64,000 bases of DNA from Squalus acanthias (Eukaryota): positions 372,001-436,000 of the forward strand of contig JASTWF010000329.1 in the NCBI GenBank assembly GCA_030390025.1. Direction: 5' to 3'. Positions within the stretch are counted from its first letter, which is position 1. Every line of letters begins with the position of its first letter. This document shows, piece by piece, positions 26,847 to 63,616 of this stretch. The notes under the pieces are model-generated. The model saw nothing but the letters and a program-made list of their open reading frames with translations, ran no database searches and had not been told where the DNA came from. The position numbers were made by a program, and so were the translations under genes.

Positions 26847-27266
26847 GGAGGCGGATAATGTTCACTGATCTTATAATGGGGCCTGGGGCCGCACTCGGGG
26901 TGTGTGCAGCCCGCGTCCCCCCGGGCTTTATTAACCCGCTCCCTGAGCTCTCTCACCTGATGTGTCAGCGGCTGCTGCCAAGGTCCGCGCATGCTCAGCT
27001 CACCTTCTGTTGTTCAGGTTTAAAGGTCAAGCCCCGCCCCTCACACACTCCGATTGGTTGGAGGACCCACCGCCCACTCGGTCCTCCAGGCCCGCCCCGC
27101 TCTTCCTATTGGTCCGGAGCTCCCGTCAATCACCCGGGCAGTGTGAGCTGAGAGAGGTGAGAGATCTCAGGGAGCAGGTTAATAAACCCCGGGGGGACGC
27201 GGGCTGCACACACCCCGAGTGCGGCCCCAGGCCCCATTATTAAAACACTCAACATTATCCGCCTCC
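26847..27266. promoter_or_regulatory. Palindromic bidirectional promoter-like cassette, copy 1
   Basis: Inverted arms about 26873-27003 and 27143-27240 (right arm has a deletion of about 31 bp) around a GC-box/CCAAT core; lies between divergent ZNF exons C and D. Confidence 0.7.
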
Positions 27267-27470
27267 CCACAAATACCCGCCAGTTTAAGACACAAACTCC
27301 GGGACAACCAGGAAGTGCTGGGAAATCCCCAGCGAGTCAGGGAGCCAGACTCTCGGGATGGCTCCACACCGCTGGCTGCTCGTGTGTCAGTGATCTCCCA
27401 TCAGATTAATGTGCGTCTGCTGTGTGTGTGTTTAACAAAGTGCCCGAAGTAGTTCATAAGGTGAGGAACG

Positions 27471-27883
27471 AGTGAGTGTCGAACTGAACCCAGTCAGAGT
27501 CAGCACCTTCAGGGGAGGAGAGGGAGGGGAAACCAGTGAGTGTAGAACTGAATCCAGCCAGAGTCAGCACCTTCAGGGGAGGAGAGGGAGGGGAACCAGT
27601 GAGTGTGGAACTGAACCCAGACAGAGTCAGCACCTTCAGGGGAGGAGAGGGAGAGGAACCAGTGAGTGTGGAACTGAACCCAGACAGAGTCAGCACCTTC
27701 AGGGGAGGAGAGGGAGAGGAACCAGTGAGTGTGGAACTGAACCCAGACAGAGTCAGCACCTTCAGGGGAGGAGAGGGAGAGGAACCAGTGAGTGTCGAAC
27801 TGAACCTAGCCAGAGTCAGCACCTTCAGGGGAGGAGAGGGAGGAGAACCAGTGAGTGTAGAACTGACCCCAGCCAGAGTCAGT
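27471..27883 (+). repeat. 63-bp minisatellite in the putative intron of ZNF D
   Basis: Unit gtgagtgtggaactgaacccagacagagtcagcaccttcaggggaggagagggagaggaacca, about 6.5 copies. Confidence 0.9.
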
Positions 27884-27953
27884 ACCTAGAATTGCCTGTT
27901 CTGAATTTCTATCCTGCACTCTCAGTCATGTCTTTTGTAAACTCCTTTTACAG

Positions 27954-28966
27954 GATATTAGAAGGGGAGGATTTGCAGATGGGAAACTCAAACCAAACAT
28001 CACGTCAAGATCTGACAGAGGCACTCGATACATCTGGACGTGAATATTATCGGCCTTTGAATGTGGACGGAGAAATGTTTTAACCAGTTACACAGCCTGA
28101 AAAATCATCGTACCATTCACAGCGGGGAGAAACGGTACACGTGTTCTGTGTGTGGACGAGGCTTCAACTGATCGTCCAACCTGGAGAGTCACAAGGACAC
28201 CCGCACCACGGAGAAACCGTGGAAATGTGGGGACTGTGGAAAGAGATTCACTTACCCGTCTGAGCTGAAAACCCATCGCTACCGGCACACCGGGGAGAGG
28301 CCGTTCACCTGCTCCATGTGTGGGAAGGGTTTCACTAATTCATCCCACCTTCTGAGACACCAGCGAGTTCACACTGACGAGAGACCTTTTAAATGCTCCA
28401 ACTGTGCGAACTGCTTTAAAAGCTCTGAGGAACTGATTCAACACCAGCGAGTTCACACTAGGGAGAGGCCGTTCACCTGCTCCGTGTGTGGGAAGGATTT
28501 CACTAATTCATCCGACCTTCTGAGACACCAGCGAGTTCACACTGACGAGAGACCTTTTAAATGCTCCAACTGTGCGAACTGCTTTAAAAGCTCTGAGGAA
28601 CTGATTCAACACCAGCGTGTTCACACTGACGATAAACCATTCAGTTGCTGTCAATGTGGGAAGAGATTCAGGCAGTCATCCAATCTCATTGTACACCAAC
28701 GCACTCACACTGGGGAGAGGCCGTTCACCTGCTCCATGTGTGAGAAGAGTTTCATTAAATCATCCAACCTGCTGACACACCAACGAATTCACACTGGGGA
28801 GAGGCCGTTCACCTGCTCCATGTGTGGGAAGAGATTCACTTGTTCATCCACCCTGCTGACACACCAGCGAGTTCACACTGGGGAGAGGCCGTTCATCTGC
28901 TCCGTGTGTGGGAAGGGATTCAATCAGTCATCCAACCTGCTGACACACCAGCGAGTTCACAAGTGA
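27954..28966 (+). CDS. C2H2 zinc-finger exon D, 9 fingers open from 28208 (ACG); first in-frame ATG at 28316
   Basis: Acceptor ttttacag at 27946-27953; leader carries a deletion at about 28080; uninterrupted finger array to TGA 28966. Confidence 0.75.
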
Positions 28967-31896: not shown

Positions 31897-34800
31897 GGTT
31901 CCCTCCAAGGAGGACACACACCCTCTTTGCCTGGTTCCCCTCCAAGGAGGACACTCGCCCTCTTTACCTGGTTCCCCTCCAGGGAGGACACTCGCCCTCT
32001 TTGCCTGGTTCCCCTCCAAGGAGGACACTCGCCCTCTTTACCTGGTTCCCCTCCAGGGAGGACACTCGCCCTCTTTACCTGGTTCCCCTCCAGGGAGGAC
32101 ACTCGCCCTCTTTACCTGGTTCCCCAAGGAGGACACACGCCCTCTTTGCCTGGTTCCCCAAGGAGGACACTCGCCCTCTTTACCTGGTTCCCCTCCAAGG
32201 AGGACACTCGCCCTCTTTGCCTGGTTCCCCTCCAAGGAGGACACTCGCCCTCTTTACCTGGTTCCCCTCCAGGGAGGACACTCGCCCTCTTTACCTGGTT
32301 CCCCAAGGAGGACACACGCCCTCTTTGCCTGGTTCCCCAAGGAGGACACTCGCCCTCTTTACCTGGTTCCCCTCCAAGGAGGACACTCGCCCTCTTTACC
32401 TGGTTCCCCAAGGAGGACACACGCCCTCTTTACCTGGTTCCCCACCAAGGAGGACACTCGCCCTCTTTGCCTGGTTCCCCTCCAAGGAGGACACTCGCCC
32501 TCTTTGCCTGGTTCCCCAAGGAGGACACTCGCCCTCTTTACCTGGTTCCCCTCCAAGGAGGACACACACCCTCTTTGCCTGGTTCCCCACCAAGGAGGAC
32601 ACACACCCTCTTTGCCTGGTTCCACTCCAAGGAGGACACACATCCTCTTTGCCTGGTTCCCCAAGGAGGACACTCGCCCTCTTTGCCTGGTTCCCCTCCA
32701 AGGAGGACACACACCCTCTTTGCCTGGTTCCCCTCCAAGTAGGACACACGCCCTCTTTGCCTGGTTCCCCTCCAAGGAGGACACTCGCCCTCTTTATCTG
32801 GTTCCCCAAGGAGGACACTCGCCCTCTTTGCCTGGTTCCCCTCCAAGGAGGACACACGCCCTCTTTATCTGGTTCCCCAAGGAGGACACTCGCCCTCTTT
32901 ACCTGGTTCCCCTCCAAGGAGGACACTCGCCCTCTTTACCTGGTTCCCCAAGGAGGACACACACCCTCTTTGCCTGGTTCCCCAAGGAGGACACTCGCCC
33001 TCTTTGCCTGGTTCCCCAAGGAGGACACTCGCCCTCTTTACCTGGTTCCCCAAGGAGGACACTCGCCCTCTTTACCTGGTTCTCCAAGGAGGACACACAC
33101 CCTCTTTACCTGGTTCCCCTCCAAGGAGGACACTCACCCTCTTTGCCTGGTTCCCCCAAGGAGGACACACACCCTCTTTGCCTGGTTCCCCTCCAAGGAG
33201 GACACACACCCTCTTTGCCTGGTTCCCCAAGGAGGACACTCGCCCTCTTTGCCTGGTTCCCCTCCAAGGAGGACACACACCCTCTTTACCTGGTTCCCCT
33301 CCAAGGAGGACACTCGCCCTCTTTGCCTGGTTCCCCTCCAAGGAGGACACACGCCCTCTTTACCTGGTTCCCCTCCAAGGAGGACACACACCCTCTTTAC
33401 CTGGTTCCCCACCAAGGAGGACACACGCCCTCTTTGCCTGGTTCCCCTCCAAGGAGGACACACGCCCTCTTTGCCTGGTTCCCCTCCAAGGAGGACACTC
33501 GCCCTCTTTACCTGGTTCCCCTCCAGGAGGACACTCGCCCTCTTTACCTGGTTCCCCAAGGAGGACACACGCCCTCTTTGCCTGGTTCCCCCAAGGAGGA
33601 CACTCGCCCTCTTTACCTGGTTCCCCTCCAAGGAGGACACTCGCCCTCTTTACCTGGTTCCCCAAGGAGGACACACGCCCTCTTTACCTGGTTCCCCACC
33701 AAGGAGGACACTCGCCCTCTTTGCCTGGTTCCCCTCCAAGGAGGACACTCGCCCTCTTTGCCTGGTTCCCCAAGGAGGACACACGCCCTCTTTACCTGGT
33801 TCCCCACCAAGGAGGACACACGCCCTCTTTACCTGGTTCCCCACCAAGGAGGACACTCGCCCTCTTTGCCTGGTTCCCCTCCAAGGAGGACACTCGCCCT
33901 CTTTGCCTGGTTCCCCAAGGAGGACACTCGCCCTCTTTACCTGGTTCCCCAAGGAGGACACACGCCCTCTTTACCTGGTTCCCCTCCAAGGAGGACACAC
34001 ACCCTCTTTGCCTGGTTCCCCAAGGAGGACACTCGCCCTCTTTGCCTGGTTCCCCAAGGAGGACACTCGCCCTCTTTACCTGGTTCCCCTCCAAGGAGGA
34101 CACTCGCCCTCTTTGCCTGGTTCCCCTCCAAGGAGGACACACACCCTCTTTGCCTGGTTCCCCTCCAAGGAGGACACACACCCTCTTTGCCTGGTTCCCC
34201 AAGGAGGACACTCGCCCTCTTTGCCTGGTTCCCCTCCAAGGAGGACACACACCCTCTTTGCCTGGTTCCCCTCCAAGGAGGACACACGCCCTCTTTGCCT
34301 GGTTCCCCAAGGAGGACACTCGCCCTCTTTGCCTGGTTCCCCTCCAAGGAGGACACTCGCCCTCTTTATCTGGTTCCCCAAGGAGGACACTCGCCCTCTT
34401 TGCCTGGTTCCCCTCCAAGGAGGACACACGCCCTCTTTATCTGGTTCCCCAAGGAGGACACACGCCCTCTTTACCTGGTTCCCCTCCAAGGAGGACACTC
34501 GCCCTCTTTACCTGGTTCCCCTCCAAGGAGGACACTCGCCCTCTTTGCCTGGTTCCCCAAGGAGGACACACACCCTCTTTGCCTGTTCCCCAAGGAGGAC
34601 ACTCGCCCTCTTTGCCTGGTTCCCCTCCAAGGAGGACACTCGCCCTCTTTACCTGGTTCCTCCAAGGAGGACACACACCCTCTTTACCTGGTTCCCCTCC
34701 AAGGAGGACACTCACCCTCTTTGCCTGGTTCCCCAAGGAGGACACACACCCTCTTTGCCTGGTTCCCCTCCAAGGAGGACACACACCCTCTTTGCCTGGT

Positions 34801-37800
34801 TCCCCAAGGAGGACACTCGCCCTCTTTACCTGGTTCCCCTCCAAGGAGGACACTCGCCCTCTTTGCCTGGTTCCCCTCCAAGGAGGACACACGCCCTCTT
34901 TACCTGGTTCCCCTCCAAGGAGGACACACACCCTCTTTACCTGGTTCCCCTCCAAGGAGGACACACGCCCTCTTTGCCTGGTTCCCCTCCAAGGAGGACA
35001 CACGCCCTCTTTACCTGGTTCCCCAAGGAGGACACACGCCCTCTTTGCCTGGTTCCCCAAGGAGGACACTCGCCCTCTTTACCTGGTTCCCCTCCAAGGA
35101 GGACACTCGCCCTCTTTACCTGGTTCCCCAAGGAGGACACACGCCCTCTTTACCTGGTTCCCCACCAAGGAGGACACTCGCCCTCTTTGCCTGGTTCCCC
35201 TCCAAGGAGGACACTCGCCCTCTTTGCCTGGTTCCCCAAGGAGGACACACACCCTCTTTACCTGGTTCCCCACCAAGGAGGACACACGCCCTCTTTACCT
35301 GGTTCCCCACCAAGGAGGACAATCGCCCTCTTTGCCTGGTTCCCCTCCAAGGAGGACACTCGCCCTCTTTGCCTGGTTCCCCAAGGAGGACACTCGCCCT
35401 CTTTACCTGGTTCCCCTCCAAGGAGGACACTCGCCCTCTTTGCCTGGTTCCCCAAGGAGGACACTCGCCCTCTTTACCTGGTTCCCCAAGGAGGACACAC
35501 GCCCTCTTTACCTGGTTCCCCTCCAAGGAGGACACTCACCCTCTTTGCCTGGTTCCCCAAGGAGGACACTCGCCCTCTTTGCCTGGTTCCCCAAGGAGGA
35601 CACTCACCCTCTTTACCTGGTTCCCCTCCAAGGAGGACACTCGCCCTCTTTGCCTGGTTCCCCTCCAAGGAGGACACACACCCTCTTTGCCTGGTTCCCC
35701 TCCAAGGAGGACACACATCCTCTTTGCCTGGTTCCCCAAGGAGGACACTCGCCCTCTTTGCCTGGTTCCCCTCCAAGGAGGACACTCGCCCTCTTTGCCT
35801 GGTTCCCCAAGGAGGACACTCGCCCTCTTTACCTGGTTCCCCAAGGAGGACACACGCCCTCTTTAGTTGGTTCCCCTCCAAGGAGGACACACACCCTCTT
35901 TGCCTGGTTCCCCAAGGAGGACACACACCCTCTTTGCCTGGTTCCCGTCCAAGGAGGACACACACCCTCTTTGCCTGGTTCCCCTCCAAGTAGGACACAC
36001 GCCCTCTTTGCCTGGTTCCCCTCCAAGGAGGACACTCGCCCTCTTTATCTGGTTCCCCAAGGAGGACACTCGCCCTCTTTGCCTGGTTCCCCTCCAAGGA
36101 GGACACACGCCCTCTTTATCTGGTTCCCCAAGGAGGACACTCGCCCTCTTTACCTGGTTCCCCTCCAAGGAGGACACTCGCCCTCTTTACCTGGTTCCCC
36201 AAGGAGGACACACACCCTCTTTGCCTGGTTCCCGAAGGAGGACACTCGCCCTCTTTGCCTGGTTCCCCAAGGAGGACACTCGCCCTCTTTACCTGGTTCC
36301 CCAAGGAGGACACTCGCCCTCTTTACCTGGTTCTCCAAGGAGGACACACACCCTCTTTACCTGGTTCCCCTCCAAGGAGGACACTCACCCTCTTTGCCTG
36401 GTTCCCCAAGGAGGACACACACCCTCTTTGCCTGGTTCCCCTCCAAGGAGGACACACACCCTCTTTGCCTGGTTCCCCAAGGAGGACACTCGCCCTCTTT
36501 ACCTGGTTCCCCTCCAAGGAGGACACTCGCCCTCTTTGCCTGGTTCCCCTCCAAGGAGGACACACGCCCTCTTTACCTGGTTCCCCTCCAAGGAGGACAC
36601 ACACCCTCTTTACCTGGTTCCCCACCAAGGAGGACACACGCCCTCTTTGCCTGGTTCCCCTCCAAGGAGGACACACGCCCTCTTTGCCTGGTTCCCCTCC
36701 AAGGAGGACACTCACCCTCTTTGCCTGGTTCCCCTCCAAGGAGGACACTCGCCCTCTTTACCTGGTTCCCCTCCAGGGAGGACACTCGCCCTCTTTACCT
36801 GGTTCCCCAAGGAGGACACACGCCCTCTTTGCCTGGTTCCCCAAGGAGGACACTCGCCCTCTTTACCTGGTTCCCCTCCAAGGAGGACACTCGCCCTCTT
36901 TACCTGGTTCCCCAAGGAGGACACACGCCCTCTTTACCTGGTTCCCCACCAAGGAGGACACTCGCCCTCTTTGCCTGGTTCCCCTCCAAGGAGGACACTC
37001 GCCCTCTTTGCCTGGTTCCCCAAGGAGGACACACGCCCTCTTTACCTGGTTCCCCACCAAGGAGGACACACGCCCTCTTTAACTGGTTCCCCACCAAGGA
37101 GGACACTCGCCCTCTTTGCCTGGTTCCCCTCCAAGGAGGACACTCGCCCTCTTTGCCTGGTTCCCCAAGGAGGACACTCGCCCTCTTTACCTGGTTCCCC
37201 CAAGGAGGACACACGCCCTCTTTACCTGGTTCCCCTCCAAGGAGGACACACACCCTCTTTGCCTGGTTCCCCAAGGAGGACACTCGCCCTCTTTGCCTGG
37301 TTCCCCAAGGAGGACACTCGCCCTCTTTACCTGGTTCCCCTCCAAGGAGGACACTCGCCCTCTTTGCCTGGTTCCCCTCCAAGGAGGACACACACCCTCT
37401 TTGCCTGGTTCCCCTCTAAGGAGGACGCACACCCTCTTTGCCTGGTTCCCCAAGGAGGACACTCGCCCTCTTTGCCTGGTTCCCCTCCAAGGAGGACACA
37501 CACCCTCTTTGCCTGGTTCCCCTCCAAGGAGGACACACGCCCTCTTTGCCTGGTTCCCCAAGGAGGACACTCGCCCTCTTTGCCTGGTTCCCCTCCAAGG
37601 AGGACACTCGCCCTCTTTATCTGGTTCCCCAAGGAGGACACACGCCCTCTTTACCTTGTTCCCCTCCAAGGAGGACACTCGCCCTCTTTACCTGGTTCCC
37701 CTCCAAGGAGGACACTCGCCCTCTTTGCCTGGTTCCCCAAGGAGGACACACACCCTCTTTGCCTGGTTCCCCAAGGAGGACACTCGCCCTCTTTGCCTGG

Positions 37801-40800
37801 TTCCCCTCCAAGGAGGACACTCGCCCTCTTTACCTGGTTCTCCAAGGAGGACACACACCCTCTTTACCTGGTTCCCCTCCAAGGAGGACACTCACCCTCT
37901 TTGCCTGGTTCCCCTCCAAGGAGGACACTCGCCCTCTTTGCCTGGTTCCCCAAGGAGGACACTCGCCCTCTTTACCTGGTTCCCCTCCAAGGAGGACACT
38001 CGCCCTCTTTGCCTGGTTCCCGTCCAAGGAGGACACACGCCCTCTTTACCTGGTTCCCCTCCAAGGAGGACACACACCCTCTTTACCTGGTTCCCCTCCA
38101 AGGAGGACACACGCCCTCTTTGCCTGGTTCCCCTCCAAGGAGGACACACGCCCTCTTTGCCTGGTTCCCCAAGGAGGACACTCGCCCTCTTTACCTGGTT
38201 CACCTCCAAGGAGGACACTCGCCCTCTTTACCTGGTTCCCCAAGGAGGACACTCGCCCTCTTTACCTGGTTCCCCAAGGAGGACACACGCCCTCTTTACC
38301 TGGTTCCCCACCAAGGAGGACACTCGCCCTCTTTGCCTGGTTCCCCTCCAAGGAGGACACTCGCCCTCTTTGCCTGGTTCCCCAAGGAGGACACACGCCC
38401 TCTTTACCTGGTTCCCCACATAGGAGGACACACGCCCTCTTTACCTGGTTCCCCACCAAGGAGGACAATCGCCCTCTTTGCCTGGTTCCCCTCCAAGGAG
38501 GACACTCGCCCTCTTTGCCTGGTTCCCCAAGGAGGACCCTCGCCCTCTTTACCTGGTTCCCCTCCAAGGAGGACACTCGCCCTCTTTGCCTGGTTCCCCA
38601 AGGAGGACACTCGCCCTCTTTGCCTGGTTCCCCAAGGAGGACACTCGCCCTCTTTGCCTGGTTCCCCTCCAAGGAGGACACACACCCTCTTTGCCTGGTT
38701 CCCCTCCAAGGAGGACACACATCCTCTTTGCCTGGTTCCCCAAGGAGGACACTCGCCCTCTTTACCTGGTTCCCCAAGGAGGACACTCGCCCTCTTTGCC
38801 TGGTTCCCCTCCAAGGAGGACACTCGCCCTCTTTGCCTGGTTCCCCAAGGAGGACACTCGCCCTCTTTACCTGGTTCCCCAAGGAGGACACACGCCCTCT
38901 TTAGTTGGTTCCCCTCCAAGGAGGACACACACCCTCTTTGCCTGGTTCCCCAAGGAGGACACTCGCCCTCTTTGCCTGGTTCCCCAAAGAGGACACTCGC
39001 CCTCTTTACCTGGTTCCCCTCCAAGGAGGACACACGCCCTCTTTGCCTGGTTCCCCTCCAAGGAGGACACACACCCTCTTTGCCTGGTTCCCCAAGGAGG
39101 ACACTCGCCCTCTTTGCCTGGTTCCCCAAGGAGGACACTCGCCCTCTTTGCCTGGTTCCCCTCCAAGGAGGACACACACCCTCTTTGCCTGGTTCCCCTC
39201 CAAGGAGGACACACACCCTCTTTGCCTGGTTCCCCAAGGAGGACACTCGCCCTCTTTGCCTGGTTCCCCTCCAAGGAGGACACACACCCTCTTTGCCTGG
39301 TTCCCCTCCAAGGAGGACACACACCCTCTTTGCCTGGTTCCCCAAGGAGGACACTCGCCCTCTTTGCCTGGTTCCCCTCCAAGGAGGACACACACCCTCT
39401 TTGCCTGGTTCCCCTCCAAGGAGGACACACGCCCTCTTTGCCTGGTTCCCAAGGAGGACACTCGCCCTCTTTGCCTGGTTCCCCTCCAAGGAGGACACTC
39501 GCCCTCTTTATCTGGTTCCCCAAGGAGGACACTCGCCCTCTTTGCCTGGTTCCCCTCCAAGGAGGACACACGCCCTCTTTATCTGGTTCCCCAAGGAGGA
39601 CACACGCCCTCTTTACCTTGTTCCCCTCCAAGGAGGACACTCGCCCTCTTTACCTGGTTCCCCTCCAAGGAGGACACTCGCCCTCTTTGCCTGGTTCTCC
39701 AAGGAGGACACTCGCCCTCTTTACCTGGTTCCCCTCCAAGGAGGACACTCGCCCTCTTTACCTGGTTCCCCAAGGAGGACACACACCCTCTTTGCCTGGT
39801 TCCCCAAGGAGGACACTCGCCCTCTTTGCCTGGTTCCCCAAGGAGGACACTCGCCCTCTTTACCTGGTTCCCCAAGGAGGACACTCGCCCTCTTTACCTG
39901 GTTCTCCAAGGAGGACACACACCCTCTTTACCTGGTTCCCCTCCAAGGAGGACACTCACCCTCTTTGCCTGGTTCCCCAAGGAGGACACTCGCCCTCTTT
40001 ACCTGGTTCCCCTCCAAGGAGGACACTCGCCCTCTTTGCCTGGTTCCCCTCCAAGGAGGACACACGCCCTCTTTACCTGGTTCCCCTCCAAGGAGGACAC
40101 ACACCCTCTTTACCTGGTTCCCCTCCAAGGAGGACACACGCCCTCTTTGCCTGGTTCCCCTCCAAGGAGGACACACGCCCTCTTTACCTGGTTCCCCTCC
40201 AAGAAGGACACACACCCTCTTTACCTGGTTCCCCTCCAAGGAGGACACTCGCCCTCTTTGCCTGGTTCCACTCCAAGGAGGTCACTCGCCCTCTTTGCCT
40301 GGTTCCCCAAGGAGGACACTCGCCCTCTTTACCTGGTTCCCCTCCAAGGAGGACACTCGCCCTCTTTACCTGGTTCCCCTCCAAGGAGGACACAGGCCCT
40401 CTTTGCCTGGTTCCCCTCCAAGGAGGACACACACCCTCTTTGCCTGGTATCCCTCCAAGGAGGACACTCGCCCTCTTTACCTGGTTCCCCTCCAAGGAGG
40501 ACACTCGCCCTCTTTACCTGGTTCCCCTCCAAGGAGGACACTCGCCCTCTTTGCCTGGTTCCCCAAGGAGGACCCACACCCTCTTTACCTGGTTCCCCTC
40601 CAAGGAGGACCCACACCCTCTTTACCTGGTTCCCCTCCAAGGAGGACACTCGCCCTCTTTACCTGGTTCCCCAAGGAGGACACACACGCTCTTTGCCTGG
40701 TTTCCCTCCAAGGAGGACACTCGCCCTCTTTACCTGGTTCCCCTCCAAGGAGGACACTCGCCCTCTTTACCTGGTTCCCCTCCAAGGAGGACACTCGCCC

Positions 40801-43504
40801 TCTTTACCTGGTTCCCCTCCAAGGAGGACACACACCCTCTTTACCTGGTTCCCCTCCAAGGAGGACACACATCCTCTTTGCCTGGTTTCCCTCCAAGGAG
40901 GGGACACACCCTCTTTGCCTGGTTCCCCAAGGAGGACACACACCGTCTTTGCCTGGTTCCCCAAGGAGGACACTCGCCCTCTTTACCTGGTTCCCCTCCA
41001 AGGAGGACACTCGCCCTCTTTACCTGGTTCCCCAAGGAGGACACTCGCCCTCTTTGCCTGGTTCCCCTCCAAGGAGGACACTCGCCCTCTTTGCCTGGTT
41101 CCCCTCCAAGGAGGACACTCGCCCTCTTTGCCTGGTTCCCCTCCAAGGAGGACACACACCCTCTTTACCTGGTTCCCCTCCAAGGAGGACACACGCCCTC
41201 TTTACCTGGTTCCCCTCCAGGGAGGACACTCGCCCTCTTTGCCTGGTTCCCCAAGGAGGACACTCGCCCTCTTTGCCTGGTTCCCCTCCAAGGAGGACAC
41301 TCGCCCTCTTTACCTGGTTCCCCTCCAGGGAGGACACTCGCCCTCTTTACCTGGTTCCCCTCCAGGGAGGACACTCGCCCTCTTTACCTGGTTCCCCAAG
41401 GAGGACACTCGCCCTCTTTACCTGGTTCCCCTCCAAGGAGGACACTCGCCCTCTTTCCCTGGTTCCCCTCCAAGGAGGACACACACCCTCTTTGCCTGGT
41501 TCCCCAAGGAGGACACTCGCCCTCTTTGCCTGGTTCCCCAAGGAGGACACAGGCCCTCTTTACCTGGTTCCCCAAGGAGGACACACGCCCTCTTTGCCTG
41601 GTTCCCCAAGGAGGACACTCGCCCTCTTTGCCTGGTTCCCCTCCAAGGAGGACACTCGCCCTCTTTACCTGGTTCCCCTCCAAGGAGGACACTCGCCCTC
41701 TTTACCTGGTTCCCCTCCAAGGAGGACACTCGCCCTCTTTGCCTGGTTCCCCTCCAAGGAGGACACACACCCTCTTTACCTGGTTCCCCTCCAAGGAGGA
41801 CACTCGCCCTCTTTGCCTGGTTCCCCAAGGAGGACACTCGCCCTCTTTGCCTGGTTCCCCTCCAAGGAGGACACTCGCCCTCTTTGCCTGGTTCCCCTCC
41901 AAGGAGGACACACGCCCTCTTTACCTGGTTCCCCTCCAAGGAGGACACACACCCTCTTTACCTGGTTCCCCTCCAAGGAGGACACTCGCCCTCTTTGCCT
42001 GGTTCCACTCCAAGGAGGACACTCGCCCTCTTTGCCTGGTTCCCCAAGGAGGACACTCGCCCTCTTTACCTGGTTCCCCAAGGAGGACACACGCCCTCTT
42101 TGCCTGGTTCCCCTCCAAGGAGGACACACGCCCTCTTTACCTGGTTCCCCTCCAAGGAGGACACACACCCTCTTTACCTGGTTCCCCTCCAAGGAGGACA
42201 CTCGCCCTCTTTGCCTGGTTCCACTCCAAGGAGGACACTCGCCCTCTTTGCCTGGTTCCCCAAGGAGGACACTCGCCCTCTTTACCTGGTTCCCCTCCAA
42301 GGAGGACACTCGCCCTCTTTGCCTGGTTCCCCTCCAAGGAGGACACACACCCTCTTTGCCTGGTTCCCCAAGGAGGACACTCGCCCTCTTTACCTGGTTC
42401 CCCTCCAAGGAGGACACTCGCCCTCTTTACCTGGTTCCCCTCCAAGGAGGACACACGCCCTCTTTGCCTGGTTCCCCTCCAAGGAGGACACACACCCTCT
42501 TTGCCTGGTATCCCTCCAAGGAGGACACTCGCCCTCTTTACCTGGTTCCCCTCCAAGGAGGACACTCGCCCTCTTTACCTGGTTCCCCTCCAAGGAGGAC
42601 ACTCGCCCTCTTTGCCTGGTTCCCCAAGGAGGACACACACCCTCTTTACCTGGTTCCCCTCCAAGGAGGACACACACCCTCTTTGCCTGGTTTCCCTCCA
42701 AGGAGGACACTCGCCCTCTTTACCTGGTTCCCCTCCAAGGAGGACACTCGCCCTCTTTGCCTGGTTCCCCAAGGAGGACACTCGCCCTCTTTACCTGGTT
42801 CCCCTCCAAGGAGGACACTCGCCCTCTTTGCCTGGTCCCCTCCAAGGAGGACACTCGCCCTCTTTGCCTGGTTCCCCTCCAAGGAGGACACACACCCTCT
42901 TTACCTGGTTCCCCTCCAAGGAGGACACACGCCCTCTTTGCCTGGTTCCCCAAGGAGGACACTCGCCCTCTTTACCTGGTTCCTCCAAGGAGGACACACA
43001 CCCTCTTTACCTGGTACCCCTCCAAGGAGGACACTCGCCCTCTTTACCTGGTTCCCCAAGGAGGACACTCGCCCTCTTTGCCTGGTTCCCCTCCAAGGAG
43101 GACACTCGCCCTCTTTACCTGGTTCCCCTCCAAGGAGGACACTCGCCCTCTTTGCCTGGTTCCCCAAGGAGGACACAGGCCCTCTTTACCTGGTTCCCCA
43201 AGGAGGACACTCGCCCTCTTTGCCTGGTTCCCCTCCAAGGAGGACACTCGCCCTCTTTACCTGGTTCCCCTCCAAGGAGGACACTCGCCCTCTTTGCCTG
43301 GTTCCCCAAGGAGGACACACACCCTCTTTACCTGGTTCCCCCAAGGAGGACACACGCCCTCTTTGCCTGGTTCCCCTCCAAGGAGGACACACTCCCTCTT
43401 TGCCTGGTTCCCTCCAAGGAGGACACTCGCCCTCTTCGCCTGGTTCCCCTCCAAGGAGGACACTCGCCCTCTTTACCTGGTTCCCCTCCAAGGAGGACAC
43501 ACAC
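31897..43504. repeat. 11.6-kb satellite of interspersed 37- and 34-bp units (roughly 320-330 units, estimated)
   Basis: Consensus cctggttccc(ctc)caaggaggacac[t/a]c[g/a]ccctcttt[g/a]. Confidence 0.97.
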
Positions 43505-50861: not shown

Positions 50862-52720
50862 ATGGGTAGTGGCGTTCCACAAGGATCAGTGCTGAGACCA
50901 CTGCTGTTCACAATTTACATTAACAATTTAGACATTGGAATCAAAAACTCAATTTCTAAATTTGCGCATGACACTAAATTGGGGGGTTAGTCAATACTGA
51001 GGAGACTGCAACAAAGGGGGCGGGGCTAGTCAATACCGAGGAGACTGCAACAAAGGGGGCGGGGATAGTCAATACTGAGGAGACTGCAACAAAGGGGGCG
51101 GGGCTAGTCAATACTGAGGAGACTGCAACAAAGGGGGCGGGGCTAGTCAATACTGAGGAGACTGCAACAAAGGGGGCGGGGCTAGTCAATACTGAGGAGA
51201 CTGCAACAAAGGGGGCGGGGCTAGTCAATACTGAGGAGGACTGCAACAAAGGGGGCGGGGCTAGTCAATACTGAGGAGACTGCAACAAAGGGGGCGGGGC
51301 TAGTCAATACTGAGGAGGCTGCAACAAAGGGGGCGGGGCTAGTCAATACTGAGGAGACTGCAACAAAGGGGGCGGGGCTAGTCAATACTGAGGAGGCTGC
51401 AACAAAGGGGGCAGGGCTAGTCAACACGAGACTGCAACAAAGGGGGCGGGGCTAGTCAATACTGAGGAGGCTGCAACAAAGGGGGCGGGGCTAGTCAATA
51501 CTGAGGAGACTGCAACAAAGGGGGCGGGGCTAGTCAACACGAGACTGCAACAAAGGGGGCGGGGCTAGTCAATACTGAGGAGACTGCAACAAAGGGGGCG
51601 GGGCTAGTCAATACTGAGGAGGCTGCAACAAAGGGGGCGGGGCTAGTCAATACTGAGGAGACTGCAACAAAGGGGGCGGGGCTAGTCAATACTGAGGAGA
51701 CTGCAACAAAGGGGGCGGGGCTAGTCAATACTGAGGAGGCTGCAACAAAGGGGGCGGGGCTAGTCAATACTGAGGAGGACTGCAACAAAGGGGGCGGGGC
51801 TAGTCAATACTGAGGAGGCTGCAACAAAGGGGGCGGGGCTAGTCAATACTGAGGAGACTGCAACAAATTACAGGAGGACATTAATAAACTTGCAGAATGG
51901 GCATATAATTGGCAAATGAAGTTCAACACAGATAAATGTGAGGTATTACATTTTGGTAGGAAGAATAAGGAGGTCACTTATCACTTGGAGGGTGCGAGTC
52001 TAGGTAGGGTAGAGGAACAAAGGGATCTCGGAGTACAAATACACAAATCACTAAAAGTTGCGACACAGTTTAGCAAGGCCATAAAAAAAGCAAACCAAGC
52101 ACCAAGGTTTATTTCTAGAGGGATAAAATTGAAAAGTAGGGAAGTTATGCTAAACCTGTATCGAACCTCGGTTAGACCACACTTGGAGGACTGCGTACAG
52201 TTCTGGACGCCATATTATAAAAAGGATATAGAGGCACTGGAAAGGGTGCAGTGAAAATTTACAACGATGATAGCAGAAATGCGAGGGTATACATATCCGG
52301 AAAGGATGAACAGGCTGGGTCTCTTTTCTCTTGTAAAAAGGCTGAGGGGTGACCTAATAGAGGTCTTTAAAATTCTGAAAGGTTTTGATAGAGTGGATAC
52401 AGAGAGAATAACTAGAGGCCATCAATATAAGATAGTCACCAAGAAATCCAATAGGGAATTCAGAAGAAACTTCTTTACCCAGAGAGTGGTGAGAATGTGG
52501 AACTTGCTACCACAGGGAGTGGTTGAAGCGAATAGTATAGATGCATTTAACGGGAGGCTGGACAAGCAGATGATGGAGAAGGGAATAGAGGGTTATGGTG
52601 ATAGATTTAGATGAGGAAAGGCTGGAGGAGGCTCGAGTGGAGCATAAACGCTAGCATGGACTGGTTGGGCCGAATGGCCTGTTTCTGTGCCGTATATCCT
52701 ACGTATGGACGTAATATATG
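50862..52720 (+). mobile_element. CR1 3' part containing an internal minisatellite, inserted in a second-family LINE tail (about 50480-50861 and 52722-52765)
   Basis: [12 protein letters not shown] start, MKFNTDKCEVLHFG, CR1 3' UTR. Confidence 0.8.
50981..51866 (+). repeat. 39-bp minisatellite expanded from CR1 RT sequence, one GC box per unit
   Basis: Unit gggggcggggctagtcaatactgaggagactgcaacaaa, about 22 copies. Confidence 0.92.
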
Positions 52721-53640: not shown

Positions 53641-55412
53641 GTGCAGTGCTGAGGGACATAAGAACATAAGAAATAGGAGCAGGAGTAGGCCAATTGGCCC
53701 CTCGAGCCTGCTCCGCCATTCAATAAGATCATGGCTGATCTGATCCTAACCGCCAATCTACTATCACAGAACCATCTCCTGAACCTAACAGAATTGGACA
53801 CACGAAATAGGAGCAGGATCAGGCTACACGCCCCTGGGCCCGCTATGCTACCCACAGGGCCATGACCAATCCGAACCTAGACTCATGTCCAAATTCCTGC
53901 CCGCTCCCCGTAACCCTTAATGCCCTTTACTTCTAGGAAACTGTCTATTTCTGTTTTAAATTTATTTAATGATGTAGCTTCTACAGCTTTTTGGGGCAGC
54001 ATATTCCATGGACCTACCACCCTCTGAGTGAAGTAGTTCCTTCTCATCTCAGTTTTGAAAGAGCAGCCCCTTATTCTAAGACTATGCCCCCTAGTTCTAG
54101 TTTCACCCATCATCGGGAACATCCTCCCCGCATCCACCCGATCCAACCCCTTTACAATCTTAAATGTTTCAATAAGATCGCCTCTCATTCTTCTGAACTC
54201 CAATGAGTAGAGTCCCAATCTACCCAACCTCTCCTCATATGTCCATCCCCTCATCCCCGGGATTAACCGAGTGAACCTTCTTTGTACTGATTCGAGAGCA
54301 AGTATGTCTTTTCTTAAGTATGGACACCAAAACTGTATGCAGTATTCCAGGTGCGGTCTCACCAATACCTTGTACAACTGAAGCAATACCTCCCTATTTT
54401 TATATTCTATCCCCCTAGCAATAAAAGCCAACATTCCATTGGCCTTCTTAATCACTTGCTGCACCTGCATACTAACCTTTTGAGTTTCGTGCACCAGGAC
54501 CCCCAGATCCCTTTGTACTTCAGTACTTTCCAGTTTCTTGCCATTAAGATAATAACTTGTTCTACTATTTTTCCTGCCAAAGTGCATAACCTCACACTTT
54601 CCAGTATTGTATTCCATCTGCCAAATCTCTGCCCACTTACTTAGCCTGTCTATGTCCCCTTGCAGATTTTTTATGTCCTCCTCACTCACTACTTTCCCTC
54701 CCATCTTAGTATCATCTGCAAAACTTTGATATGTTACACTCGGTCCCCTCCTCCAAATCGTTAATATAGATTGTAAAGAGTTGGGGACCCAGCACTGACC
54801 CCTGCGGAACACCACTAGTTACTGACTGCCAGTCTGAGAATGAACCATTTATCCCAACTCTCTGCCTTCTGTTAGATAGCCAATCCTCTATCCATGCCAG
54901 AATATTACCCCCAATCCCGTGATTTTTTATCTTAAGCAATAATCTTTTGTGTGGCACCTTGTCAAATGCCCTTTGGAAGTCTAAATACACCACATCCACT
55001 GGTTCCCCTTTATCCACCCTGTATGTGACTTCCTCAAAGAACTCCAGCAAATTTGTCAAACATGACTTCCCCTTCATAAAACCATGCTGACTTTGTCCTA
55101 TTAAATTATGATTATCCAAATGTCCCGTTACTGTCTCCTTAATAATGGACTCCAAAATTTTACCTACCACAGATGTTAGGCTAACCGGTCTATAGTTTCC
55201 AGCCTTCTGTCTACTGCCCTTTTTAAATAAAAATGAGAAGTCGCACAACACCAGGTTATAGTCCAACAGATTTATTTAATTTTACAAGCTTTCGGAGCTG
55301 TCGCTCCTTCGTCAGGTAAGTTAGCAATGAGAGAATCTCCCAGAATTCACAATTTAAACCCAGACAAAATCTATTCACATTATTCGCTACAACAAAGAGC
55401 ACAGCCAAGACA

Positions 55413-57038
55413 ATGAGATGTGTCCCAGGGGGTCCAACATGTCAAACCACCTGCTGGCTGCATATCCTGTCAATTTGTGTTCTTGTGTTAGCCTTTTTAA
55501 AAAAAAAACCAGGCAACGGAACCCTGTGTGAGAACCTCTCTGGGTACGTCGAGGGCATCCTGAAACCCATCGTACAGGGAACCCCCAGCTTCTGTCGCGA
55601 CACTGCAGATTTCTTGCAGAAACTCAGCACCCATGGACCAGTTGAACCAGGAACACTCCTCGTCACAATGGACGTATCGGCACTCTACACCAATATCCCC
55701 CACAATGACGGCATCGCTGCGACAGCCTCAGTACTCAACACAAACAACAGCCAATCTCCGGACGCCATCTTACAACTCATCCGCTTCATCCTTGACCACA
55801 ATGTCTTCACCTTCGACAACCATTTTTTCACCCAAACACACGGAACAGCCATGGGGACCAAATTCGCACCCCAATACGCCAACATCTTCATGCACAAGTT
55901 CGAGCAAGACTTCTTCGCTGCACAGGACCTCCAACCAACGCTGTACACCAGATACATCGACGACATCTTCTTCCTTTGGACCCACGGCGAAGGATCACTG
56001 AAAGGACTACACGATAGCATCAACAGGTTCCATCCCACCATCAAACTCACCATGGACTACTCCTCAGAATCGGTTTCATTCTTGGACACACGAATCTCCA
56101 TCAAAGACGGACGCCTCAGCACTTCACTCTACCGCAAGCCCACGGACAACCTCACGATGCTCCACTTCTCCAGCTTCCACCCTAACCACGTTAAAGAAGC
56201 CATCCCCTATGGACAAGCCCTGCGAATACACAGGATCTGCTCAGACGAGGAGGAACGCGATGGACACCTACGGACACTGAAAGACGCTCTCGTAAGAACA
56301 GGATATGACGCTCGACTCGTCGATCGACAGTTCCGACGGGCCACAGCGAAAAACCGCATAGACCTCCTCAGAAGACGAACACGGGACACAACCAACAGAG
56401 TACCCTACGTCGTCCAGTACTTCCCCGGAGCGGAAAAACTACGCCATGTTCTTCGCAGCCTTCAACATGTCATCGATGACGACGAACACCTTGCTAAGGC
56501 CATCCCCACGCCTCCACTACTCGCCTTCAAGCAGCCGCCTAACCTCAAAAGTACCATCGTTCGCAGCAGATTACCCATCTTTCAGGAGAACAGCAACCAA
56601 GACACCACACAACCCTGCCACGGCAACCTCTGCAAGACATGCCAAATCATGGACACAGATACCATCATTACACGTGAGGACACTACCCACCAGGTACACG
56701 GTACATACTCATGTGACTCGGCCAACGTTGTCTACCTGATACGTTGCAGTAAAGGATGCTCCAGAGCATGGTACATCGGCGAGACCATGCAGACACTGAG
56801 ACAACGTATGAACGGACACCGCGCAACAATCGCCAGGCAGGAGGGTTGCCTCCCAGTCGGGGAACACTTCAGCAGCCAGGGGCATTCAGCCTCGGATCTG
56901 CGGGTAAGCGTTCTCCAAGGCGGCCTTCGAGATACACGACAGCGCAAAATCATAGAGCAGAAACTGATAGCCAAGTTCCGCACTCATGAGGATGGCCTCA
57001 ATCGCGATATCGGGTTCATGTCACGATACAGAACGTGA
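55413..57038 (+). CDS. Penelope RT plus GIY-YIG endonuclease; about 33 N-terminal residues come from the inverted repeat
   Basis: MDVSALYTNI, GTAMG, YIDD; Cys linker PCHGNLCKTC; NVVYLIRC...YIGET...RMNGH. Confidence 0.85.
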   Translation: MRCVPGGPTCQTTCWLHILSICVLVLAFLKKKPGNGTLCENLSGYVEGILKPIVQGTPSFCRDTADFLQKLSTHGPVEPGTLLVTMDVSALYTNIPHNDGIAATASVLNTNNSQSPDAILQLIRFILDHNVFTFDNHFFTQTHGTAMGTKFAPQYANIFMHKFEQDFFAAQDLQPTLYTRYIDDIFFLWTHGEGSLKGLHDSINRFHPTIKLTMDYSSESVSFLDTRISIKDGRLSTSLYRKPTDNLTMLHFSSFHPNHVKEAIPYGQALRIHRICSDEEERDGHLRTLKDALVRTGYDARLVDRQFRRATAKNRIDLLRRRTRDTTNRVPYVVQYFPGAEKLRHVLRSLQHVIDDDEHLAKAIPTPPLLAFKQPPNLKSTIVRSRLPIFQENSNQDTTQPCHGNLCKTCQIMDTDTIITREDTTHQVHGTYSCDSANVVYLIRCSKGCSRAWYIGETMQTLRQRMNGHRATIARQEGCLPVGEHFSSQGHSASDLRVSVLQGGLRDTRQRKIIEQKLIAKFRTHEDGLNRDIGFMSRYRT

Positions 57039-57267
57039 CTTGACATCATGGCCGGTCTTCCCAGGTGTTTTTTTTGGTTTTTTTTTTTAAAAAGGCTAAC
57101 ACAAGAACACAAATTGACAGGATATGCAGCCAGCAGGTGGTTTGACACGTTGGACCCCCTGGGACACATCTCATTGTCTTGGCTGTGCTCTTTGTTGTAG
57201 CGAATAATGTGAATAGATTTTGTCTGGGTTTAAATTGTGAATTCTGGGAGATTCTCTCATTGCTAAC

Positions 57268-57305
57268 TTACCTGACGAAGGAGCGACAGCTCCGAAAGCT
57301 TGTAA
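57268..57305 (+). ncRNA. Minimal type I hammerhead ribozyme motif (mirror copy on the minus strand at 55282-55319)
   Basis: UUAC-CUGACGA-A-GGAGC-GACA-GCUCC-GAAA-GC-UU-GUAA: core boxes, 5-bp helix II, palindromic AGCU helix III, helix I UUAC/GUAA. Confidence 0.75.
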
Positions 57306-59051
57306 AATTAAATAAATCTGTTGGACTATAACCTGGTGTTGTGCGACTTCTCATTTTTGTCCACCCCAGTCCAACGCCGGCATCTCCACATCATGACCTC
57401 TTTTTAAATAAGGGTGTTACATTAGCAGTTTTCCAATCTGCCGGGATCTTTGCTGAGTCCAGGGAGTTTTGGAAAATTATCAATGCATCCACAATCCCTA
57501 CCGCCACTTCCCTCAAGACCCTAGGATGTAAGCCATCAGGTGCAGGTGATTTATCCGCCTTGAGTCCCATTATTTTACCGAGTACCACTTCCTTAGTGAT
57601 TTTGATCGTGTTTAGCTCCTCACCCCCTATAGCCCCCTGTTTGTCCAGTGTTGGGATATTCTTAGTGTCCTCTACTGTAAAGACTGATACAAAATATTCA
57701 TTCAGTGTATTTGCCATCTCCATATTTCCCACCATTAATTTCCAGGTCTCATCCTCTAGGGGACCAACATTTACTTTAGCCACCCTTTTTCTTTTTATAT
57801 AACTATAAAAACTCTTACTGTCTGTTTTTATATTTTTTGCTAATTTACTTTCATAATCTATCTTCCCTTTCTTAATCAATCTTTTTGTTATTTTTTGCTG
57901 TCTTTTAAAGTTTTCCCAATCCTCTATCCTCCCACTAGATTTGGCTACCTTATAAGCCCTTGTTTTTAGTCGAAAACTATCCTTAATTTCTTCACTTAGC
58001 CACGGATGACTGTCTTTTCTTTTACACCCTTTTCTTCTCAGTGGAATATATATTTTTTGGAAGTTGTAAAATAACTCCTTAAATGTACACCACTGATCAT
58101 GTATCGTCTTACGCTTTAATCTATTTTCCCAATCCACTCTACTCAATTCCGCTCGCATACCTTCATAGTCTCCTTTATTCAAGCTTAGCACGCTTGTTTG
58201 AGATCCAACCTTCTCACTCTCTAATTGAATATGGAATTCAACCATGTTATGGTCACTCATTCCAAGGGGATCCTTTACTAGGACATTTTTAATTAATCCT
58301 GTCTCGTTACGCAGGACCAGATCTAAGGTTGCTTGCCCCCTGGTCGGTTCAGTTACATACTGCTCAAGAAACCCATCCCTAATACACTCAATGAACTCAT
58401 CCTCAAGGCAGCCCTGCCCAATTTGATTTGTCCAATTAATATGATAGTTAAAATCCCCCATAATTATAGATGTTCCCTTATTACAAGCCTCAACTATTTC
58501 CTGATTGATACTCCGTCCAACAGAGTTGCAACTGTTCGGAGGCCTATAGACTACGCCCACTAGTGTTTTTTTCCCCTTATTATTCCTTATCTCCACCCAA
58601 ACTGTTTCATTATCCTGATCTTTTGACCCAATATCATTTCTCTGTATTACAGTGATTCCTTCCTTTATTAACATAGCCACCCCACCTCCCCTTCCTTCCT
58701 GCCTGTCCTTCCTGATCGTTAAATAACCTGGTATGTTTAATTCCCAGGCATTGTCACCCTGCAGCCATGTTTCTGTAATGGCCACAAGATCATACCCATA
58801 TGTAGTTATTTGTGCCATTAACTTGTCTATTTTGTTACGAATGCTACGTGCATTCAGATAGAGAACTTTCAAATATGTTTTGTGACACTTAGTTCCTGCT
58901 TTTGCCCTTTTTATTACTTTACCTTTTACTCCATACTTTCTGCCCCTTCCTGACACACTCTGGTTTTTAATTTCCCCACTGCTACCTAAGTCTATGACCT
59001 TCTCTGTTGTCATTTTTATTATTTGCTCTCTAGGAACCTCCCCCTCACTAG

Positions 59052-60735: not shown

Positions 60736-61940
60736 TCACTTGTGAACTCGCTGGTGTCTCAGCAGGTTGGATGATCGAAAGAAACCCTTCCCACACTCGG
60801 AGCAGGTAAACGGCCTCTCCCCAGTGTGAATTCGTTGGTGTGTCAGTAGGCTGTACGATCGAGAGAAACCCTTCCCACACACGGAGCAGGTGAACGAGCT
60901 CCCCCCAGTGTGAATTTGTTGGTGTGTCAGCAGGGTGGATGAACAAGTGAATCCCTTCCCACACACGGAGCAGGTGAATGGCCTCTCCCCAGTGTGAATT
61001 CGTTGGTGTGTCAGCAGGCTGGACGATCGAGAGAAACCCTTCCCACACACGGAGCAGGTGAACGGCCTCTCCCCAGTGTGAACTCTCTGGTGTGTCACCA
61101 AATGGAATGACTGAGTGAATCCCTTCCCACACACGGAGCAGGTGAACGGTCTCTCCCCAGTGTGAGTGCGTTGGTGTAAAATGAGATTGAATGACTGCCT
61201 GAACCTTTTCCCACAGTGAGAGCAACTGAATGGTTTATTGTCAGTGTGAACTCGCTGGTGTTGAATCAGTTCCTCAGAGCTTTTAAAGCAGTTCGCACAG
61301 TCAGAGCATTTAAAAGGTCTCTCCTCAGTGTGAACTCGCTGGTGTCTCAGAAGGTGGGCTGAATTAGTGAACCCCTTCCCACACACGGAGCAGGTGAACG
61401 GCCTCTCCCCAGTGTGAACTCGCCGGTGTCTCAGCAGGTTGGATGACTGAGCGAATCCCTTCCCACACACGGAGCAGGTGAATGGCCTCTCCCCGGTGTG
61501 AGTGCGTCGATGAGTTTCCAGGTGGGATGGGGAACTGAATCCCTTCCCACAGTCCCCACATTTCCACAGTTTCTCCGTGGTGTGGGTGTCCTTGTGTCTC
61601 TCCAGGTTGGACGATCAGTTGAAGTCTCGTCCACACACAGAACACGTGTACGGTTTCTCCCCGCTGTGAACGGTGCGATGTTTTTTCAGGCTGTGTAACT
61701 GGTGAAAGCTCTTTCCACAGTCAGTGCACTGGAACACTCTCACTCGGGTGTGTGTGACTCGGTGCTTTTCCAGTCACACTGATGTTTGAAATCTTTTCCC
61801 ACAGACAGAACAGACAAACATTTCTCCTTCCACATTCAAAGGCCGATGATATTCAGGTCCTGATGAATTGAGTGACTCTCAGATCTTGACGTGATGTTTG
61901 GTTTGAGTTTCCCGGCTGCAAATCCTCCCCTTCTAATACC
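60736..61940 (-). CDS. C2H2 zinc-finger exon F, 10 fingers open from 61578 (ACG); no in-frame ATG after the leader stops
   Basis: Acceptor at 61940/61941; leader stops at 61776 and 61617; uninterrupted array to 60736; closest to exon D ([15 protein letters not shown]). Confidence 0.7.
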
Positions 61941-62773
61941 CTGTAAAAGGAGTTTACAAAAGTCATCACTGTAAGTACAGGATAGAAATTCAGAACAGAC
62001 AATTCTAGTTTCTATACAATGTTCCTTCACACGTGGGGATTCTAACCCTGGGACTGTACATGGTGATCACTAAACACAAAACCCAGGCTGTTAAACATTT
62101 TCAGCTACTGGACTTAGCATGTGTCCCATAGTATCTCTCTCACTTTTAATGTGTGAATAGAGCATCACACCTGCGAACCTGGTTTTAAATTTAAATTCAC
62201 TCACCAAATGTATTTAACAAAAGATGAACAAGTAAACCCGTCACAGCCCACTAATCCAGCTCTACATTCACAGGAGGAAGCCTGTTATCGAACTCCTCGA
62301 GTGGATGAAACAAAGAAAGATCCCAAATGGGAGAGTCCCTCGAATCCTTTGTAAAGACCTTTCAAATCCTGACCGGTTCCTTCCTTATTCGAGAATTCCC
62401 CATCCCTGTGGGAGTCGATATTGGTCAAAAACTGCTAATTGGACATTTTAACCGATTTTTCAGCTGTTTCAAGCTGACCAGGTCCTTCACTCAGAGAATC
62501 TCCAAGGAGACTCTTTGATTTAAACACAGCTCTCCCCTCTTTTATATCCGGGATTAGATTACTGGGAATTTGAATACCTGACCACTCAAATTTAAAAGGG
62601 CCCGTCAGTGATCCACAGACTGAACCAATCACACAGCTCTGGGTCAGTTTGAATGATTCCTCTCTCCAGCCTGTAACCGATGAAACTTGTAACACTGAGG
62701 CTGAAATTCCACTTCCGGGTGCCGGATTCCAGCCCTGGGACTGTACATGGGGATTCCAACCCTGGAACCCTGG

Positions 62774-63190
62774 GTGTTTTAATAATGGGGCCTGGGGCCG
62801 CACTCGGGGTGTGTGCAGCCCGCGTCCCCCCGGGGTTTATTAACCCGCTCCCTGAGCTCTCTCACCTGATGTGTCAGCGGCTGCTGCCAAGGTCCGCGCA
62901 TGCTCAGCTCACCTTCTGTTGTTCAGGTTCAAGGGTCAAGCCCCGCCCCTCACACACTCCGATTGGTTGGAGGACCCGCCGCCCGCTTGGTCCTCCAGCC
63001 CCGCCCCGCTCTTCCTATTGGTCCGGAGCTCCCGTCAATCACCCGGGCAGTGTGAGCTGAGCATGCGCGGACCTTGGCAGCAGCCGCTGACACATCAGGT
63101 GAGAGAGCTCAGGGAGCGGGTTAATAAACCCCGGGGGGACGCGGGCTGCACACACCCCGAGTGCGGCCCCAGGCCCCATTATTAAAACAC
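62774..63190. promoter_or_regulatory. Palindromic bidirectional promoter-like cassette, copy 2 (perfect arms)
   Basis: 62774-62912 is the exact reverse complement of 63052-63190; the spacer has two GC boxes, two ATTGG and CGTCAATCA; each arm has GCATGCGC and CAG|GTGAGA. Confidence 0.75.
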
Positions 63191-63277
63191 TCAACATTAT
63201 CCGCCCGCCGGTTTAAGGTTTCGCTCCGTCCGAAAAAGCGGCCATTGCGCATGCGCATCGTCAGCATCAGACTCCGT

Positions 63278-63616
63278 CAGGGAGCGTCTGTAAATAAAAG
63301 AGGAATGGAGACTGAGCAGGGAGCGTCTGTAAATAAAAGGAATGGTGACTGAGCAGGGAGCGTCTGTAAATAAAAGAGGAATGGTGACTGAGCAGGGAGT
63401 GTCTGTAAATAAAAGAGGAATGGAGACTGAGCAGGGAGCGTCTGTAAATAAAAGAGGAATGGTGACTGAGCAGGGAGTGTCTGTAAATAAAAGAGGAATG
63501 GTGAGTGAGCAGGGAGTGTCTGTAAATAAAAGAGGAATGGTGGCTGAGCAGGGAGTGTCTGTAAATAAAAGAGGAATGGTGACTGAGCAGGGAGTGTCTG
63601 TAAAAAGAGGAATGGT
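63278..63616 (+). repeat. 39-bp minisatellite with AATAAA in nearly every unit
   Basis: Unit cagggagcgtctgtaaataaaagaggaatggtgactgag. Confidence 0.9.

Follow-up and report, generated by a model that had tools for sequence, protein, structure and literature searches.

Apparently exchanged flanks around two copies of a palindromic, promoter-like cassette in a zinc-finger gene cluster of Squalus acanthias

We analysed a stretch of 64,000 nucleotides from Squalus acanthias (assembly GCA_030390025.1, contig JASTWF010000329.1, positions 372,001 to 436,000 of the forward strand), here called the window, which holds six C2H2 zinc-finger paralogues (A–F) in a cluster of vertebrate type. Two copies of a cassette, at 27.0 and 62.9 kb, each consist of a 139-bp core between inverted arms. 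The core has the same absolute orientation in both copies, and the sequences on its two sides appear to have been exchanged between them. We favour, as moderately probable, a rare germline event that acted through the near-identical arms of a multicopy two-way promoter, that is, a historical rearrangement and not a regulated switch. The evidence for the exchange is weaker than an initial annotation of this stretch had held.

The two cassettes and their flanks

In copy 1, the left arm (26847–27003, minus strand; near-identical part 26873–27003) is followed by the core (27004–27142, plus) and by a right arm (27143–27266, plus) that has lost 33 bp close to its inner end. In copy 2, the left arm (62771–62912, minus) is cut at its outer end, at 62770, by a unit of a 27-bp minisatellite, and is followed by the core (62913–63051, plus) and the right arm (63052–63205, plus; perfect part to 63193). 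The copy 2 arms (62771–62912 and 63052–63193) are complementary at 141 of 142 positions, and the predicted hairpin has a folding energy of −230.6 kcal/mol (z −28.5), which none of 100 shuffles matched. The inner 131 bp of the copy 1 left arm are identical to each copy 2 arm at 130 positions, and its outer 26 bp match the copy 2 right arm at 19. Aligned in direct register, the whole cassettes are identical at 382 of 391 positions (97.7%). The cores agree at 133 of 139 positions on the same strand, compared with about 58% on opposite strands, which bears out the single absolute orientation described in the initial annotation.

The first marker of an exchange is a 39-bp minisatellite, which lies to the left of copy 1 (26264–26782, minus, 13.3 units) and to the right of copy 2 (63278–63617, plus, 8.8 units), with no gene after the latter array within the window. 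That these arrays are related, as had been proposed, was upheld: their similarity was reached by none of 2000 shuffles, and one pair of units is alike at 32 of 38 positions. When both are read away from the core, copy 1's left half can be aligned to the right half of copy 2 for 571 bp (80.8%), a stretch that crosses the arm and enters the array. A further 39-bp array at 50983–51867 was considered as a relative of the flank arrays and rejected, since 526 to 1714 of 2000 shuffles reached its scores.

The second marker is the gene pair D and F. Putative exon 2 of D (27954–28966, plus) leaves from the right arm of copy 1, and putative exon 2 of F (60736–61940, minus) from the left arm of copy 2; they have a common acceptor, ending at 27953 and 61941, respectively. 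D and F are indeed the closest paralogues in the window: F provides the best outside match among the window genes for 6.0 of the nine D fingers (ties split), and fingers D3 and F7 are 97% identical. The 3′ flank said to be shared by D and F is less telling. A distinctive stretch about 110–150 bp past the stop is common to both, but the first 170 bp as a whole are not specific to the pair (86% between D and F, 85–90% between D and A, B, C or E). The two markers, array and gene pair, agree on the exchange.

The positions of D and F relative to the arms hold as first described, but F is joined to its arm through a secondary patch (62037–62770, plus) that has 27-bp minisatellite units at both ends. 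This patch is an 87–91% copy of the downstream flank of gene C (23985–23185), a sequence also seen behind B. The 27-bp minisatellite recurs at 21105–21297 and 22387–23057 besides the patch, and its unit may be a point of recombination. In one sequencing run (X10, introduced below), several contigs join 62061–62067 straight to 62724–62733, as array contigs would. C's downstream flank also carries a short insertion at 23490–23632 that is absent from the copy at 62065–62725; it is probably a SINE, with a tRNA-like head at 23559–23632.

On the other side, the putative first intron of D (27267–27953, plus, with the acceptor at its end) contains an ETS-like box (27309), a lone head of the 39-bp unit (27336) and a 63-bp array (27463–27887) related to sequence upstream of B. 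To the left of copy 1, a block with an ETS-like CAGGAAGT (26784–26809, minus) is 81% complementary to 27292–27317. The caveat already attached to the initial annotation, that homology extends beyond the arms, therefore finds support: the right flank of copy 1 retains an array head and an ETS-like box in common with the left flank. Judged from these traces, both copy 1 flanks appear to descend from one ancestral intron.

A candidate two-way promoter in many copies

In appearance, the cassette is a two-way promoter, rich in CpG, that would serve C2H2 zinc-finger genes arranged head to head. Its GC content is 0.59–0.61 and its observed/expected CpG ratio 0.69–0.73, compared with 0.2–0.5 in most of the window. 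Each core carries, in a single orientation, matches to what we take to be two CCAAT boxes and three GC boxes (plain motif matches with no shuffle control): CCAAT at 27053 and 27108 and GC boxes at 27034, 27070 and 27092 in copy 1, and CCAAT at 62962 and 63017 and GC boxes at 62943, 62979 and 63001 in copy 2. The arms and flanks contain words of NRF1-like and ETS-like type. According to the accessible part of a review, the NF-Y, SP1, NRF1 and GABPA motifs are among those enriched at bidirectional promoters (PMC10887517). Around copy 1, C lies on the minus strand, with its 5′ part missing, and D on the plus strand; at copy 2, F lies to the left and the right side leaves the window.

Each intact arm carries an outward-pointing CAG/GTGAGA that matches the donor consensus at eight of nine positions. 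In copy 2, the first bases of the left arm are the GT of AAG/GTGAGC (62912), and this arm contains a second donor-like CAG/GTGAGA with its GT at 62865, and the CAG/GTGAGA of the right arm has its GT at 63099. The deleted right arm of copy 1 retains a donor-like GAG/GTGAGA (GT at 27157). The boundaries of the core are asymmetric, with eight of nine donor positions matched at the left and six of nine at the right. With splice donors of this kind in them, the arms probably derive from the 5′ ends of genes by duplication, and the core between them would be a shared promoter. Anatomy, orientations and broad contig cover are observations; promoter function, arm splicing, the number of copies and the history are inferred.

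Contigs from runs guessed to be RNA give weak hints of splicing. One contig of run X8 covers 62994–63098, ending one base before a donor GT, and three contigs from RNA-guess runs stop at 61941–61943, the acceptor of F; one X10 contig stops there too, so this hint is weak as well. Rfam had no match at the cassettes, its only match in the window at gathering score being the tRNA-like stretch at 23559–23632. A sigma-70 scan returned no promoter, a result that has no meaning for a vertebrate promoter.

We compared positions 61800–63300 with contigs of four sequencing runs (X1, X6, X8 and X10) from three organisms, 4 of the 23 listed runs; the comparison took in about 55% of X1. All four runs contain arms and core, in many variants; at position 62988, contigs with another letter numbered 37 in X1 and 89 in X10. 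Just beyond the right arm the cover collapsed: past 63228 the summed contig depth, which is not copy number, fell from 63,269 to 342 in X1 and from 203,620 to 7.5 in X10. This variant-rich cover of the cassette, set against the collapse in its flank, suggests that the arm–core–arm unit is probably a multicopy family module. At fixed places such as 62095 and 62311, the letters of the window are absent from every one of the four runs, which therefore lack the window's own copy. Contigs of other runs carry arm sequence next to each end of the core (X10 record 16; X6 records 22 and 23; X8 record 32). The patch beside F is likewise not private to the window, as record 6 of X1 spans the junction of 27-bp unit and arm, and record 19 of X6 connects the patch with the sequence upstream of F. 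Arm and core patterns had no matches in metagenome contigs and none in viral contigs.

The window itself holds a third, diverged core copy that lacks arms (7572–7676, minus; 83–85% over 105 bp). The stretch around it (7140–7720) is CpG-rich and promoter-like, with an NRF1-like word and a donor-like GTGAGT at 7402, and has no clear link to any zinc-finger exon.

How the flanks may have come to be exchanged

In the history we favour, each cassette would serve two C2H2 zinc-finger genes, placed head to head, as a common two-way promoter, and its arms would be the duplicated 5′ ends of both genes, comprising the end of the first exon and the start of intron 1. Conversion or constraint, acting over a family of many copies, would keep the arms near-identical. 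Since every arm resembles every other, a flank could end up on either side of a core, and at least one germline event would have placed the flank lineage with the 39-bp array at opposite core ends in the two copies. That event may have been an in-place inversion, a conversion of the core from a copy paired in the other register, or a crossover between copies. Because the arms are inverted copies of each other, a donor cassette has two registers in which to pair, so that conversion or crossover could reset the orientation without any in-place inversion; given a multicopy module, such an exchange with another copy would yield the same picture. The window cannot separate in-place inversion from the conversion or crossover routes. 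Of the initial annotation's proposal that recombination between the arms had inverted the core, we keep a past exchange of core and flank through the arms as the most economical account, and do not single out in-place inversion.

Several observations accord with this history. The cassettes are more alike than the D/F blocks (90–92%), the patch (87–91%) or the array units (about 84%), which suggests that they were made or held alike after the flanks had diverged. Conversion tracts in humans span a few hundred bases according to the portion of the source available to us (PMC3961182), a size that a tract of about 400 bp would fit. In yeast, the homogenisation of arms coupled to inversion of the spacer is a described mutational process, template switching, in the parts of the report at hand (PMC8604942).

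A number of points weigh against it. Homology between D and F sets in no earlier than about 70 bp ahead of the acceptor. Their introns gave no BLAST match to each other, and the similarity score between them was reached by 5 of 300 shuffles, compared with none of 300 for D and B; D's intron resembles the sequence upstream of B better than it does F's intron. As the intron of F is not that of D, one of the two markers was joined to its arm secondarily. Both copy 1 flanks share the ETS-like block (1 of 2000 shuffles), and sharing beyond the arm between the left flank of copy 1 and the right flank of copy 2 is weaker (28 of 2000). The right flank of copy 1 has, at 27336, the sole occurrence of the 10-mer head of the 39-bp unit outside the arrays. 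Whatever gene follows copy 2 on the right lies past the end of the window, out of reach of a comparison with C. Summed contig depth, from which many copies were read, does not equal copy number; among 15 of 103 contig joints, none was a splice joint from arm to acceptor; and the yeast spacers seen to invert in the accessible text measure 2–5 bp, far below 139 bp (PMC8604942).

Some of these same points lend themselves to a history with no flip, the main rival, which we regard as possible but rather doubtful. Here a symmetric, palindromic ancestor would have had the intron and a seed of the array on both sides, and the two copies would be direct duplicates with reciprocal flank losses, copy 1 having lost its right array and copy 2 having had its left flank replaced. 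The lone array head at 27336, the ETS-like block common to both copy 1 flanks and the patch that now forms the left flank of copy 2 all favour such a history. So does the outer sequence that the right arms of both copies share as far as CCGCC, with a further match of 11 in 12 positions, though this last likeness is weak (104 of 2000 shuffles). Set against the exchange through the arms, this history costs more events: two reciprocal losses, and the replacement of a D/F-type gene by a C-type gene to the left of copy 1. Against it stands also the position of D and F, which lie on the array-free side in both copies.

Recurrent flipping in the germline, with both core orientations segregating at single loci as inversion polymorphisms, we consider unlikely. 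It is kept open by the real asymmetry of the core and by the near-perfect arms of copy 2 (141 of 142 positions) around a 139-bp spacer, and it has precedents: among human inversions between inverted repeats, 11 of 16 were recurrent in the part of the study available (PMC3961182), and yeast spacer flips are described as reversible (PMC8604942, likewise in part). The human recurrent cases in that same material, however, span 5.6–37.6 kb and their recurrence is tied to large repeats (PMC3961182). The copy 1 arms carry private differences and the 33-bp deletion, so exchange there seems to have been infrequent. No joint with a change of strand was found among the 15 of 103 joints examined, although such contigs cannot phase the core; of the 32 contig pieces examined out of 23,582, none spans flank, arm and core. 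A broader version of this idea makes the cassette a family-wide adaptor, whose arms would let the core flip repeatedly and zinc-finger units swap sides, with both orientations segregating among individuals, possibly among cells, and changing the first exon and expression level of the partner genes. It would make the cassette an invertible promoter of a vertebrate gene family that works without a recombinase. We give this version only an outside chance.

It is very unlikely that two separate insertions of a mobile element, a MITE or one of another kind, gave rise to the arm–core–arm units. The unit's length of about 420 bp, long inverted arms, apparent multicopy state and greater conservation than its flanks would suit an element, but no target-site duplication was found at three choices of boundary, the ends differ between copies, homology continues beyond the arms, the core at 7572–7676 is armless, and the donor-like sites face outward toward gene acceptors. 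It is also highly improbable that one core was placed the wrong way round in assembly because its arms exceeded the read length. The 142-bp arms are about one short read long and short-word contigs do break within them; yet the window contains no N and resolves an 11.6-kb array of 37-bp units, which suggests long reads, and the copy 1 arms can be told apart.

The most far-reaching idea of the initial annotation was that the promoter may be invertible and so bias the choice of zinc-finger gene, and for this we found no support. A programmed, enzyme-driven somatic inversion selecting the gene to be driven is extremely improbable: a promoter-like segment between inverted repeats is present, judging by its motifs, and its asymmetry (donor-like matches of 8/9 and 6/9, CCAAT and GC boxes all one way) means that a flip could change the choice of first exon, but no recombinase family appeared in the 7 of 70 listed open frames scanned (one could lie elsewhere), scores for RAG-type recombination signals (10 of 16) are at background, with 76 of 90 tiles scoring 10 or more, and the pay-off of a switch at this locus is doubtful because C is broken, F has no ATG and the first ATG of D is at codon 49.

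Neighbouring genes, repeats and known systems

The six paralogues lie among LINE fragments and minisatellites and show mosaicism at the level of single fingers as well as broken copies. Gene A lies at about 2.7–4.3 kb and B at 11.1–13.3 kb, both on the plus strand, and E at 49.1–48.2 kb on the minus strand. C (24030–25932, minus) is broken, its 5′ part with the family acceptor being missing and its finger array interrupted at about 24530–25332 by a LINE piece, which we take to be of CR1 type. The open frame of D (28172–28966) encodes nine C2H2 fingers; that of F (61614–60736) has 292 codons and ten fingers. The lack of an ATG in F's frame means either a lost start or a non-AUG start. F has TGA in two leader fingers, and in-frame TGA codons lie at matching positions in the leader fingers of A, B and F (2770–2970, 11250–11330 and 61640–61810). 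The codon at the MEKPWKC position (about 28208 in D and 61585 in F, for example) is ATG in A and C and ACG in B, D and F, all in an ACC-xxx-G context. Among the seven frames scanned with Pfam, those of D and F had strong matches to zinc-finger families only, with no match to KRAB, SCAN or BTB, and the five others matched reverse transcriptase, endonuclease and esterase families.

A hairpin with 59-bp arms (26058–26182), found again at 1931–2063, separates C from the 39-bp array; it is probably a retroelement end, presumably of Penelope type. At 55229–55508 and 57079–57358, a 280-bp inverted repeat (99.6%) flanks a reverse-transcriptase frame of 572 codons (55320–57038), and we assume this element (55229–57358) to be probably a young Penelope-type one. 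An imperfect inverted repeat at 45458–45662 has 87-bp arms (87%) and a 31-nt spacer. The large array at 31897–43500 (11.6 kb) has about 324 copies of 34–37-bp units, with several plus-strand frames open. Directly after it, a promoter-like stretch (43518–43689) is 69% alike, in opposite orientation, to another upstream of B (10231–10401).

Parts of the cassette resemble several known systems. With the vertebrate bidirectional CpG-island promoters covered in the consulted part of a review (PMC10887517), it has in common its richness in GC and CpG, motifs of the NF-Y, SP1, NRF1 and GABPA types and genes that appear to point outward; it differs in that its two sides are near-perfect inverted copies over 142 bp and in that it is apparently multicopy. 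Yeast template switching, as far as the available text goes (PMC8604942), also involves near-perfect arms and a spacer whose orientation differs between related copies, but the arms there measure about 7–16 bp and the spacers 2–5 bp, in coding DNA, compared with 142-bp arms and a 139-bp spacer here. The copies compared here are moreover paralogues, so exchange between copies is possible too. In human inversion polymorphisms, homologous arms likewise invert the enclosed DNA without a dedicated enzyme; a difference is that the events in the excerpt we could draw on are of kilobase scale and polymorphic by genotyping (PMC3961182).

Bacterial invertible promoters, such as fimS with FimBE, Hin with hix and the invertons of Bacteroides, use short sites and a site-specific recombinase and occur in both states in one population. 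The cassette shares with them a promoter-bearing segment between inverted repeats, but neither a recombinase nor short sites nor two states were seen here. Lineage-specific tandem clusters of poly-C2H2 zinc-finger genes evolve by birth and death, and the window agrees with them in its paralogues, finger mosaicism, broken copies, minisatellites and LINE insertions; the palindromic shared promoter would be an added feature. A literature search across titles and abstract openings, with few subscription journals and without supplements, found no description of the cassette or of a vertebrate invertible promoter, and we know of no invertible promoter in vertebrates. The parts of the cassette are known kinds of thing and the processes known ones.

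The locus offers an example of how a large zinc-finger family may be rebuilt, with a palindromic promoter staying near-constant amid the exchange of neighbouring introns, minisatellites and coding exons, and should be useful in studies of cartilaginous-fish genomes and of gene-family turnover. If both orientations occurred at one locus together with a change in expression, its importance would be far greater, as no such promoter is known to us from vertebrates.

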